A stretch of DNA of 64,000 nucleotides. Source: Escherichia phage vB_Eco_NR1. This document shows, in pieces, positions 51,788 to 54,969 of this stretch (position 1 is its first letter; each line of letters starts with the position of its first letter). The notes beneath the pieces were generated by a model. The model had not been told where the DNA came from. It saw only the letters and a list, made by a program, of their open reading frames with translations, and made no database searches. The position numbers were made by a program, and so were the translations under genes. Location of the stretch: the sequence record LR990704. The stretch is one strand, 5' to 3'.

Positions 51788-51988
51788 ATGGTACAAAAAT
51801 TAATGGCACTTGTTAATGCCATAAAAGGTAATAAAAAACGTATAGCTTTTACTATTTCTGCTATGGTAGGAATTTTACTCTGGAACTTTATTCTATCACC
51901 TGTTGCAATTGCGCATGGTATTAATATTCCAGTAGTTACTCTTGATACATTTGTAGATTTAGCATTTGCTTTAGTTGGGTTGATTTAA
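51788..51988 (+). CDS. putative small membrane protein (66 aa) on opposite strand between 56 and 61
   Basis: AAGGAGG SD 4 nt before ATG; two predicted TM segments; ORF fits the 56-61 intergenic gap exactly (4-nt overlap with gene 61 end). Confidence 0.4.
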   Translation: MVQKLMALVNAIKGNKKRIAFTISAMVGILLWNFILSPVAIAHGINIPVVTLDTFVDLAFALVGLI

Positions 51989-53013: not shown

Positions 53014-53180
53014 TTTTACTCTTCTTTTTCTTTAGATTCCTCTTTCTTCTTTTTAGGAATCTGTTCAGGACCTTTATTTACTACAGCACCTGACGTTGTT
53101 CCAGTAGAGATATTTTCAGGATTACCACCTGAATCTCCAGCGACCATATCTTCTTTAATAAATTCTTTATATGTTTTCAT

Positions 53181-53229
53181 ATTAACCTCTATTCATAAAA
53201 GCATTAAAAATTTGGTCATCAATAGATGG
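53181..53229. repeat. 44-48 bp direct repeat, copy 1 (3-prime end of 118-aa ORF)
   Basis: attaacctctattcataaaagcattaaaaatttggtcatcaataga nearly identical to copy at 53539..53587. Confidence 0.8.
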
Positions 53230-53538
53230 CGCAGTAATATTTTCTGCATCATTTAGCAAATCATTAATTTCATCAGATAGCATAACACATGTACCTTTAT
53301 TTCCTGTAATTGTTACTGCACAATTACGAACGTTTTCTTTATCAAATTTTAGGTTAATATTTTCGTAGTGAAAATCCTTTAATGCCGAATATATCTTTAA
53401 AATGAAATTGTCTTTTACTACAATAAACCCAACCTCACTATTAAAACGCGGTTCATGGAAACTGTAATAAACCTTTTCATCTATAAAATCGTATGAAATT
53501 TTTTCCATTTTTAAATATGAAAATTCAGAACTATACAT
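53182..53538 (-). CDS. hypothetical protein (118 aa), paralog of adjacent 210-aa ORF
   Basis: shares VKDN-containing repeat and C-terminal SIDDQIFNAFMN(R/K)G with 53540..54172. Confidence 0.6.
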   Translation of the reverse strand: MYSSEFSYLKMEKISYDFIDEKVYYSFHEPRFNSEVGFIVVKDNFILKIYSALKDFHYENINLKFDKENVRNCAVTITGNKGTCVMLSDEINDLLNDAENITAPSIDDQIFNAFMNRG

Positions 53539-53587
53539 ATTAACCTTTATTCATAAAAGCATTAAAAATTTGATCGTCAATAGAAAC
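53539..53587. repeat. 44-48 bp direct repeat, copy 2 (3-prime end of 210-aa ORF)
   Basis: attaacctttattcataaaagcattaaaaatttgatcgtcaataga. Confidence 0.8.
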
Positions 53588-54172
53588 TTTTACTTTAGGC
53601 TGTTCTTCAAACAGTAATTCATATCCACATATTACAATTTTGTGATCGATACCAAAATACACAGAAGCAATATTATTAATATTATTTTCAGTGAAATCTA
53701 AATCAACATCAATATCTTTTTGACTAACGCTCAAAGGATAATTAATACGAATAATTCGATTATCTTTAACAAAGATTCCACCGACATACTCTGTGCTGCG
53801 TTTAAAGTTTACACGTTTCCTAAATGAAAAATATTCAGGTTCTTTATGGGCTCGACTCATAGGGCTTAAAGTGTATTCCGAATATGAAATATCAAATCCT
53901 ACACCTTCAATATGAGCCAAAGTATCATGATTAAACCAATTATAATCGTATGCCAAATCCATTAAATTGTAATATGTGAAAGGCACCGGATTAACATCAT
54001 ATGTTGTACCTTTAAAATCTGCCCAGGCAACGATTTCGTTATCTTTAACAATTACAAAAATTGTGCCAATAAGATATCCACGGTTATTTTCATCAGGTGT
54101 TATATTATAACATTGTGCATCAGGAAATTTACCGTATTTAAACGGTGGATTTTTGTGCATATAATAAATCAT
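53540..54172 (-). CDS. hypothetical protein (210 aa) with internal VKDN repeats
   Basis: ORF track; repeated motif (GTIFVIVKDNEIV, GGIFVKDNRIIRI). Confidence 0.6.
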   Translation of the reverse strand: MIYYMHKNPPFKYGKFPDAQCYNITPDENNRGYLIGTIFVIVKDNEIVAWADFKGTTYDVNPVPFTYYNLMDLAYDYNWFNHDTLAHIEGVGFDISYSEYTLSPMSRAHKEPEYFSFRKRVNFKRSTEYVGGIFVKDNRIIRINYPLSVSQKDIDVDLDFTENNINNIASVYFGIDHKIVICGYELLFEEQPKVKVSIDDQIFNAFMNKG

Positions 54173-54173
54173 A

Positions 54174-54467
54174 TTATTCGCCTGTGATTTCGGTTACGAT
54201 ATTTTTGTTATTAAAGTTTTTATCGCAATACAGAACATAATTATACTGCATTACACCACCAGACTTAAGTTGTTTTTGCACTTCAGCTTTCATTTCAGGA
54301 CGATCGCGCTCAACGATATTCATAATATCCGCTTCAATTTGAGTTTCAACTTCAGTCTGATCTGCAGTCATAGACCATTCACACAAATCTTTATCATAAC
54401 CTGCCATAGCAGGCTGAGCAGCACAAGAAGCCAAAGTAAAAATTGTAGCAAAAATAAATTTTTTCAT
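54174..54467 (-). CDS. sp: spackle periplasmic protein Sp (lysozyme inhibitor / superinfection exclusion)
   Basis: 97 aa with signal peptide (MKKFIFATIFTLASCAAQPAMA) as in T4 Sp. Confidence 0.88.
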   Translation of the reverse strand: MKKFIFATIFTLASCAAQPAMAGYDKDLCEWSMTADQTEVETQIEADIMNIVERDRPEMKAEVQKQLKSGGVMQYNYVLYCDKNFNNKNIVTEITGE

Positions 54468-54527: not shown

Positions 54528-54785
54528 CTATTTTAAAACTTCTGCGTAATCACATGTTACAAACTGTTTCTCTAGCTTAACGATTTTACGAAAATACCTT
54601 TTATACTGACGAATCTGCCTCTTCGTAGGACGTACAGCAAACTTAATAAATTCCACTCGACCAAATGGAGGACTTTCTTCTGCTGGAATATCTAACACCA
54701 ATTCCCACGTATCTACAATAAGTGCTTTGAATTGAGTATTTTTCCTGACGTTATACGGAGTAGGTTTAAATAAAACAATATGCAT
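54528..54785 (-). CDS. hypothetical protein (about 85 aa)
   Basis: ORF track 54528..54827; ATG 54785 with GAGGA SD directly after dmd stop is more plausible than the listed start inside dmd. Confidence 0.55.
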   Translation of the reverse strand: MHIVLFKPTPYNVRKNTQFKALIVDTWELVLDIPAEESPPFGRVEFIKFAVRPTKRQIRQYKRYFRKIVKLEKQFVTCDYAEVLK

Positions 54786-54786
54786 A

Positions 54787-54969
54787 TTATCCTCGGCAAT
54801 CCACTTCGCACACTTTCTTGTCATCAATGAAAGCTTTAACTAATGCTTTATTAACTTCAGCATATTGAGTAGTAGCCCATTGAACGTCATCTTTCATCAT
54901 TGTGATTTCTTTAGTAAACATGCTTTCATTCTTAAACCACCCCATAAAAACTACCTTTACCAATTCCAT
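54787..54969 (-). CDS. dmd: Dmd, antitoxin against host RnlA/LsoA RNases
   Basis: 60 aa matching recalled T4 Dmd (MELVKVVFMGWFKNE...). Confidence 0.9.
   Translation of the reverse strand: MELVKVVFMGWFKNESMFTKEITMMKDDVQWATTQYAEVNKALVKAFIDDKKVCEVDCRG

Follow-up and report, generated by a model that had tools for sequence, protein, structure and literature searches.

The two tandem open reading frames (ORFs) that lie beside the spackle gene of a T4-like phage are adfA, which encodes a counter-defence factor already known, and an old paralog of it with a single module; the explanation that we regard as likely is that both proteins end in a tail held constant by selection, and that the repeat which this shared tail imposes on the coding DNA would drive gene loss and gain within an anti-toxin island. 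The source of the window, by which is meant the whole 64-kb stretch of DNA that was analysed, is a T4-like (Tequatrovirus) phage, and the 1.6 kb around the two genes is at least 99% identical to many Tequatrovirus genomes. Read along the minus strand, the order of genes is 41, dmd, 61.4 (tifA), sp, the 210-aa ORF, the 118-aa ORF, 61.1 and 61. The dmd homologue (54787..54969, minus strand; 60 aa), an anti-RnlA antitoxin, is annotated as 'antitoxin Dmd' at the syntenic position in PV857777 and T4; it is followed by the homologue of gene 61.4 or tifA (54528..54785, minus strand), anti-ToxN in T4 and recognised here by Pfam DUF7279 (E 2.1e-20) and synteny (PMC9391042), and by sp (54174..54467, minus strand; 97 aa; Pfam PF25676, E 5.8e-45), which stands immediately upstream of adfA. 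Together, dmd, tifA and adfA have been called an anti-toxin(-antitoxin) island, to which the tifA homologue (61.4) belongs (PMC9391042). On the far side of the pair lies the 54-aa homologue of gene 61.1 (53016..53180, minus strand; phrog_1823, E 7e-34, with T4 synteny), whose start is coupled to the stop of the shorter ORF. The original prediction had set the pair between gene 61 and sp, which is right on the sp side; the other immediate neighbour is 61.1, not 61.

In several GenBank records, 'major capsid domain-containing protein' or 'putative major capsid protein' is the name given to the 61.1 homologue (53016-53180) or to adfA, and these labels look like annotation-transfer errors. On the opposite (plus) strand, between genes 56 and 61, a hydrophobic ORF of 66 aa (51788-51988) resembles RB69ORF029w in its position, and is called a 'holin family protein' in one record and a 'predicted membrane protein' in another.

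The 210-aa ORF (53540..54172, minus strand) is AdfA, or gp61.2, the product of an already known gene and the homologue of T4 gene 61.2 (anti-DarT factor A), an identity which had gone unrecognised in the original prediction. Its match to the Pfam AdfA family (PF23813) reaches E 8.6e-138 and 457 bits, where the curated cut-off is 27, with residues 1-210 placed on profile positions 1-211; it lies between sp and 61.1 as gene 61.2 does in T4, in synteny with T4, RB32 and PV857777, and its counterpart in PV857777 is annotated as 'anti-DarT factor A'. The AF2 model of AdfA (pLDDT 68) consists of two beta5-alpha modules, each strand-rich with a helix, together with a poorly defined linker and a tail helix. 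A VKDN motif had been noted as common to both ORFs, and it is indeed present in each, once in the shorter (aa 41-44) and twice in the longer (aa 42-45 and 135-138), where the two sites are encoded by an exact 13-nt direct repeat (53760-53772 and 54039-54051). When the N-terminal half of AdfA was compared by hhalign with its C-terminal half and with the short protein, the E-values were 1.2e-3 and 1.7e-3, at 15-19% probability, over approximately 40 columns around the VKDN hairpin, and the aligned elements are ordered as in the predicted secondary structure; the sequence evidence for a putative internal tandem duplication inside AdfA is weak.

AdfA was found through escape mutants of RB69, and its reported action is to bind the DNA ADP-ribosyltransferase toxin DarT1 and so neutralise it; RB69 AdfA is reported to neutralise DarT1 with His at position 164 and not with Arg, and in two-hybrid assays AdfA(R164H) associates with DarT1 and wild-type AdfA does not (PMC11257639). 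The equivalent codon in the window, identified by alignment (53672..53674, minus strand; PMC11257639), encodes Asn167, neither Arg nor His, and the residue of the short paralog that aligns with it is likewise Asn. Among 14 aligned cluster representatives, this position is His in 13 and Arg, the RB69 type, in one. The AdfA of the window therefore differs from the R164H allele characterised in the literature, in a way that concerns the activity of the allele and not membership of the family. Its N-terminal half (53843-54172) is approximately 90% identical to Mosigvirus (RB69-like) alleles and 61-64% identical to the T4/T6-type alleles of its own genus, from which it is suggested that AdfA allele classes have been exchanged between genera; both classes of N-terminal half are found with and without the short gene. 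In Escherichia phage Elenatom (L014:1368-1990), adfA is split into ORFs of 98 and 64 aa and may be a pseudogene, and the adjoining short paralog (119 aa) is intact.

The 118-aa ORF (53182..53538, minus strand) is a one-module paralog of AdfA (phrog_4122; the RB32ORF033c family), and the two ORFs, at the positions given here, are paralogous as had been claimed: residues 21-118 of the short protein align with residues 111-210 of AdfA at 38% identity (E 9e-12, BLASTP of the pair). Against the Pfam AdfA profile it scores 31.9 bits, above the cut-off of 27, over profile positions 113-211 only; against phrog_4122 it reaches E 2.1e-72, and the PHROG cross-hits with AdfA are reciprocal. The RefSeq record of RB32 describes the orthologue RB32ORF033c as 'similar to gp61.2'. 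Judged by these alignments, the 118-aa ORF represents a half-length subfamily of the known AdfA family, whose membership annotation and Pfam already flag. The two-module architecture of AdfA (approximately 206-212 aa) is absent from it: a single beta5-alpha module is followed by one further helix and the tail, and the AF2 model (pLDDT 83, pTM 0.73) shows five strands followed by a helix, then a short strand and another helix ahead of the tail helix. In T2, the short gene (L003:2501-2857) lies directly after sp and is 97.5% identical to that of the window.

One might take such a half-length ORF for a degenerating relic that no longer serves any function itself, as no phenotype is known for it, T4 manages without it, and T2 stripped of adfN is sensitive to DarTG1 despite carrying it. 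We consider this quite improbable, however, as the short gene is intact in about 298 GenBank phage records, most of them with an identity of at least 95%, and its dN/dS against orthologues is 0.09-0.33, values which indicate that it is under purifying selection. Its AF2 fold is confident, it is the only member of the AdfA family at the locus in several lineages, and the gene found broken in Elenatom is adfA and not its short neighbour.

How similarity is distributed along the two genes bears on when they were duplicated. The original prediction had seen in the pair the mark of a recent duplication, and such a reading, in which the short ORF would be a young partial copy of adfA and the repeat a remnant from before divergence, draws on the adjacency of the two genes, their common strand and their near-identical 3' ends. 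A recent segmental duplication should nonetheless leave uniformly high nucleotide identity along the whole length, and not similarity confined to the last 49 nt; in the aligned codons outside the 14-codon tail, identity is 31% for residues, 44% for nucleotides and 32% for third positions, compared to 93% for nucleotides within the tail. Third-position identity as low as this implies that synonymous sites outside the tail are saturated. In other lineages, moreover, separate orthologues exist for each of the paralogs: in Gaprivervirus, a short-form orthologue (117-122 aa) adjoins a 145-aa gene that also has the tail, and in two uncultured T4-like lineages the short form (120 and 125 aa) stands alone directly after sp, in each case without a full-length adfA. 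A recent origin can accordingly be given hardly any probability, and by sequence comparison the short gene is an old single-module paralog of the C-terminal half of AdfA.

What the two genes do share closely is their end. Both ORFs terminate in SIDDQIFNAFMN(K/R)G, as was originally observed, and the DNA that encodes this peptide is part of a near-identical direct repeat. The repeat itself was correctly recognised, although its length is 49 nt and not the 44 first reported, and it lies 3 nt to the left of the positions first given: a repeat search places the copies at 53178-53226 and 53536-53584, identical at 46 of 49 positions and with a spacing of 358 nt. Its 27-nt core occurs at just these two sites in the 64-kb window, where none is expected (100 shuffles). 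Each copy extends beyond the 3' end of its ORF to take in the stop codon and the TAATATG of the next gene. Copy 2 (53536..53584, no strand assigned) thus consists of the 14 codons at the end of adfA (SIDDQIFNAFMNKG), its stop and the TAATATG that starts the short gene; in copy 1 (53178..53226, no strand assigned), the corresponding parts are the 14 codons at the end of the short gene (SIDDQIFNAFMNRG), its stop and the TAATATG that starts 61.1. On the coding strand, the repeat reads TCT ATT GAy GAy CAA ATT TTT AAT GCT TTT ATG AAT ArA GGT TAA T ATG, and in copy 1 the GAGG Shine-Dalgarno sequence of the next gene falls within the AGA GGT codons of the tail.

At the protein level, every family member seen has DDQIFNAFM unchanged. 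The peptide occurs on at least three body types, with the consensus DDQIFNAFM(N/K)(R/K)(G/D) common to them, and it stays constant while body identity falls to 27% and the length of the spacer or linker varies. The differences between genera within the tail are synonymous (GAC/GAT, CAA/CAG, GCT/GCC/GCA, TTT/TTC), which argues that selection acts on the peptide. The third body type is found in Gaprivervirus, where a 145-aa protein (phrog_8539; L011:2062-2499 and L012:2017-2454) lies directly after sp and carries the tail SVDDQIFNAFMKRD; by hhalign, the tail alone aligns (E 3.5e-7 with AdfA, E 2e-8 with the profile of the short protein), and the body of this protein has no similarity to the AdfA sequence. 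A 'split AdfA' in Gaprivervirus, with the 145-aa protein as its N-terminal half, was considered and found no support from hhalign. Foldseek searches of BFVD returned family members only, one of them a protein of the 145-aa Gaprivervirus type with a weak whole-length match (E 8.2e-4, TM 0.47-0.56), which hints at a fold shared with the AdfA family that hhalign does not confirm. One record annotates the 145-aa protein as a serine/threonine protein kinase, which is doubtful.

Could the repeat instead be conserved as a nucleic-acid element, be it an RNA structure, a signal for translational coupling or another cis site, and not for its peptide? Its last 12 nt do hold GAGG and TAATATG, the start and ribosome-binding site that the next gene uses, and this piece is kept in T2 despite the loss of adfA. 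Yet the ribosome-binding site explains just these last 12 or so of 49 nt, the changes between genera are synonymous and leave the peptide as it is, and RNA folds of the two repeat junctions are no better than those of shuffled sequence (z -0.85 and +1.70); a scan for promoters and terminators found no enrichment. Conservation for the nucleic acid in place of the peptide is consequently unlikely. More plausibly, the tail would be held constant by selection on the protein in AdfA, in the short form and in at least one further body type; the gene that follows has its Shine-Dalgarno sequence within the last codons of the tail, and its start abuts the stop codon. As adjacent genes encode the same tail, the result in DNA is a 49-bp direct repeat whose copies lie 358 bp apart.

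The repeat copies would then be subject to recombination with one another. In the window, identical residues are encoded by identical codons at 10 of 12 sites in the tail compared to 7 of 25 in the body (Fisher p 0.004), and the tails of DK-13 match each other at every one of 36 nt; by these codon comparisons, tail copies within a genome are more alike than constraint on the peptide alone predicts. Tail codon identity between genera is also fairly high, however (5-8 of 10-11 codons), such that part of the DNA similarity could be due to codon bias or to horizontal spread of the tail. Gene conversion probably accounts for the likeness of the copies beyond that imposed by protein constraint alone. 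Further evidence comes from UKE3-1 and R5505, Tequatroviruses that share a 212-aa adfA allele; their loci are 96.5% identical and set apart by a single indel of 358 bp, exactly the spacing of the repeat, with both endpoints within it. The surviving tail in UKE3-1 is chimeric, with the 5' sites GAC GAT of the adfA copy and the 3' site AGA of the short copy. The chimera suggests in which direction the 358-bp event went, deletion or insertion, and it marks the repeat as a recombination site. In every locus read, the tail adjoining 61.1 ends AGA GGT TAA T ATG AAA and that adjoining the short gene ends AAA GGT TAA T ATG (T/C)AT; adfA-only phages all have the 61.1-type ending (AGA GGT).

In T2, 609 bp covering adfA are missing and TAGAGGTTAGTATG is retained ahead of the short gene. 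The sequence TGAATAA stands at both ends of the deleted segment, as seen in RB32, and the junction is not a clean product of microhomology. T4 is known to amplify and delete genes in this island readily by way of short homologies (PMC9391042). Homologous recombination between repeat copies would delete, or re-insert, exactly the short gene, and a separate 609-bp deletion would take out adfA; the two events would between them give rise to the three haplotypes observed, namely both genes (RB32, RB27 and the window), adfA only (T4, T6) and the short gene only (T2).

The frequency of these haplotypes was assessed in GenBank phage records. The N-terminal half of AdfA was found by tblastn in 486 records and the short gene (tblastn, at least 60% identity) in about 298, either gene was found by a two-piece query in 627, and both genes are present in 157, a figure obtained from two independent queries. 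From these counts, approximately 141 records carry the short gene only and approximately 329 adfA only, the latter group taking in the RB69-like Mosigviruses; the four counts are mutually consistent (157 + 329 = 486). They derive from the synthetic two-piece query and from single-gene tblastn, as queries for T4- or T2-type junctions over-count by joining separate BLAST pieces. A pattern scan of IMG/VR for tail DNA returned 5 contigs, too few for a census. Copy number in related phages, which the original prediction had proposed to compare, does therefore vary, and of its suggestion that the module is recombination-prone and could expand or contract, the contraction is borne out by the 358-bp indel, the chimeric tail and the division into 157, ~141 and ~329 records; expansion beyond two copies, or more than two tail-bearing genes, was seen in no locus read.

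A simpler account would ascribe the whole similarity of the tails to purifying selection on the peptide, leave the repeat without a role in recombination and derive the haplotypes from unrelated indels, and the invariance of the peptide across genera alongside differing synonymous sites fits it. It does not accommodate an indel that equals the repeat spacing, with endpoints within the repeat and a chimeric surviving tail, nor a K/R codon that always tracks its downstream neighbour, nor a codon identity within the genome that is higher in the tail than in the body (p 0.004). Selection alone is an improbable explanation on this evidence, and selection on the tail combined with recombination at the repeat is preferred.

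As to function, position 164 of AdfA lies in the AF2 model in a helix of the C-terminal module, the part that AdfA has in common with the short protein. Since AdfA(R164H) binds DarT1, since position 164 is in the shared module and since the locus is an anti-toxin island, the short protein is most likely a direct inhibitor of a host toxin; by this analogy it would probably bind its toxin with a specificity unlike that of AdfA. T2 is described as naturally lacking an adfA homologue, and with adfN deleted it becomes sensitive to the DarTG1 tested (PMC11257639). T2 has the short gene without adfA and is sensitive once adfN is lost, so the short protein at native expression appears to give no protection against that DarT1. 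T4 AdfA gave no phenotype in the same DarTG1 assay (PMC11257639).

The tail may have a role of its own. In both AF2 models, the tail helix is placed with a pLDDT of 48-60, compared to more than 90 for the body of the short protein, and this low model confidence, taken with the pattern of conservation, suggests that a helix on a linker serves as a tethered functional peptide, most likely a docking peptide. A clamp-binding motif was considered (PIP box, QL[SD]LF) and set aside, as the hydrophobic positions do not fit. More specifically, and as a tentative proposal that we would put well short of even odds, DDQIFNAFM(N/K)RG could be a portable docking motif that tethers different, rapidly evolving bodies, those of AdfA, the short form and the 145-aa protein, to one conserved partner. 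If so, the partner could be a conserved surface of DarT-family toxins or a component of the host or phage replication fork, a proposal that places DarT action on single-stranded DNA at the fork. The tail-coding DNA, being shared, would then double as a recombination joint by which inhibitor bodies are swapped or stacked, and the overlooked short gene of T2 would be an inhibitor of a further toxin variant.

Few phage inhibitors of toxins that ADP-ribosylate DNA have been characterised, AdfA among them, and its family is very small: an exhaustive profile search found 10 clusters among 1.84 billion representatives, and word-indexed protein searches found 16 and 5 clusters. Neither kind of search found a distant homologue with a known function, and structure searches found no informative structural relative of the family. 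That approximately 300 T-even genomes, T2 included, carry a half-length relative of AdfA adds a candidate for counter-defences that are as yet unexplained, such as DarTG2 resistance. The invariant tail offers a specific and testable functional element common to several body types, and the 49-bp coding repeat illustrates, with a concrete case from nature, how the T4 anti-toxin island gains and loses counter-defence genes; the classification of the AdfA family is unchanged by these findings. In the literature searched, the short form in T2-type phages, one tail on several body types, and a coding repeat as the cause of a presence/absence polymorphism were not found stated. Overall, the observation is sound, its evolutionary explanation is an ordinary one, and the tail is the one lead that can be tested.

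Change in copy number by recombination has a counterpart in the 'gene accordion' of poxvirus K3L. In T4-type genomes, Arbiol, Comeau and Krisch reportedly proposed in 2010 that promoter-early stem-loop repeats act as mobile regulatory cassettes for modular shuffling. Such cassettes are similar to the repeat in the window in that short repeats flank small accessory ORFs and provide homology for gene gain and loss; they are, however, intergenic promoter and stem-loop units, whereas the repeat described here encodes a conserved peptide and includes a ribosome-binding site, with no enrichment of promoters or terminators and no signal of RNA structure. The closest relative of the 118-aa ORF is AdfA itself (PF23813), which it resembles in locus, in the C-terminal tail and in the C-terminal half with the residue that controls DarT1 binding (RB69 R164). 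It differs in having one module where AdfA has two, and the data from T2 argue that the short protein does not stop the DarT1 studied. The nearest precedent for the recombination is the amplification of dmd-tifA in T4 (Srikant et al. 2022, PMC9391042), in which the copies are fresh and identical and form arrays; here, the 49-bp repeat lies inside coding sequence, the units are old and diverged paralogs, and each gene is simply present or absent. Both cases nevertheless involve the same neighbourhood, recombination between direct repeats that changes copy content, and a cargo of counter-defence genes (PMC9391042).
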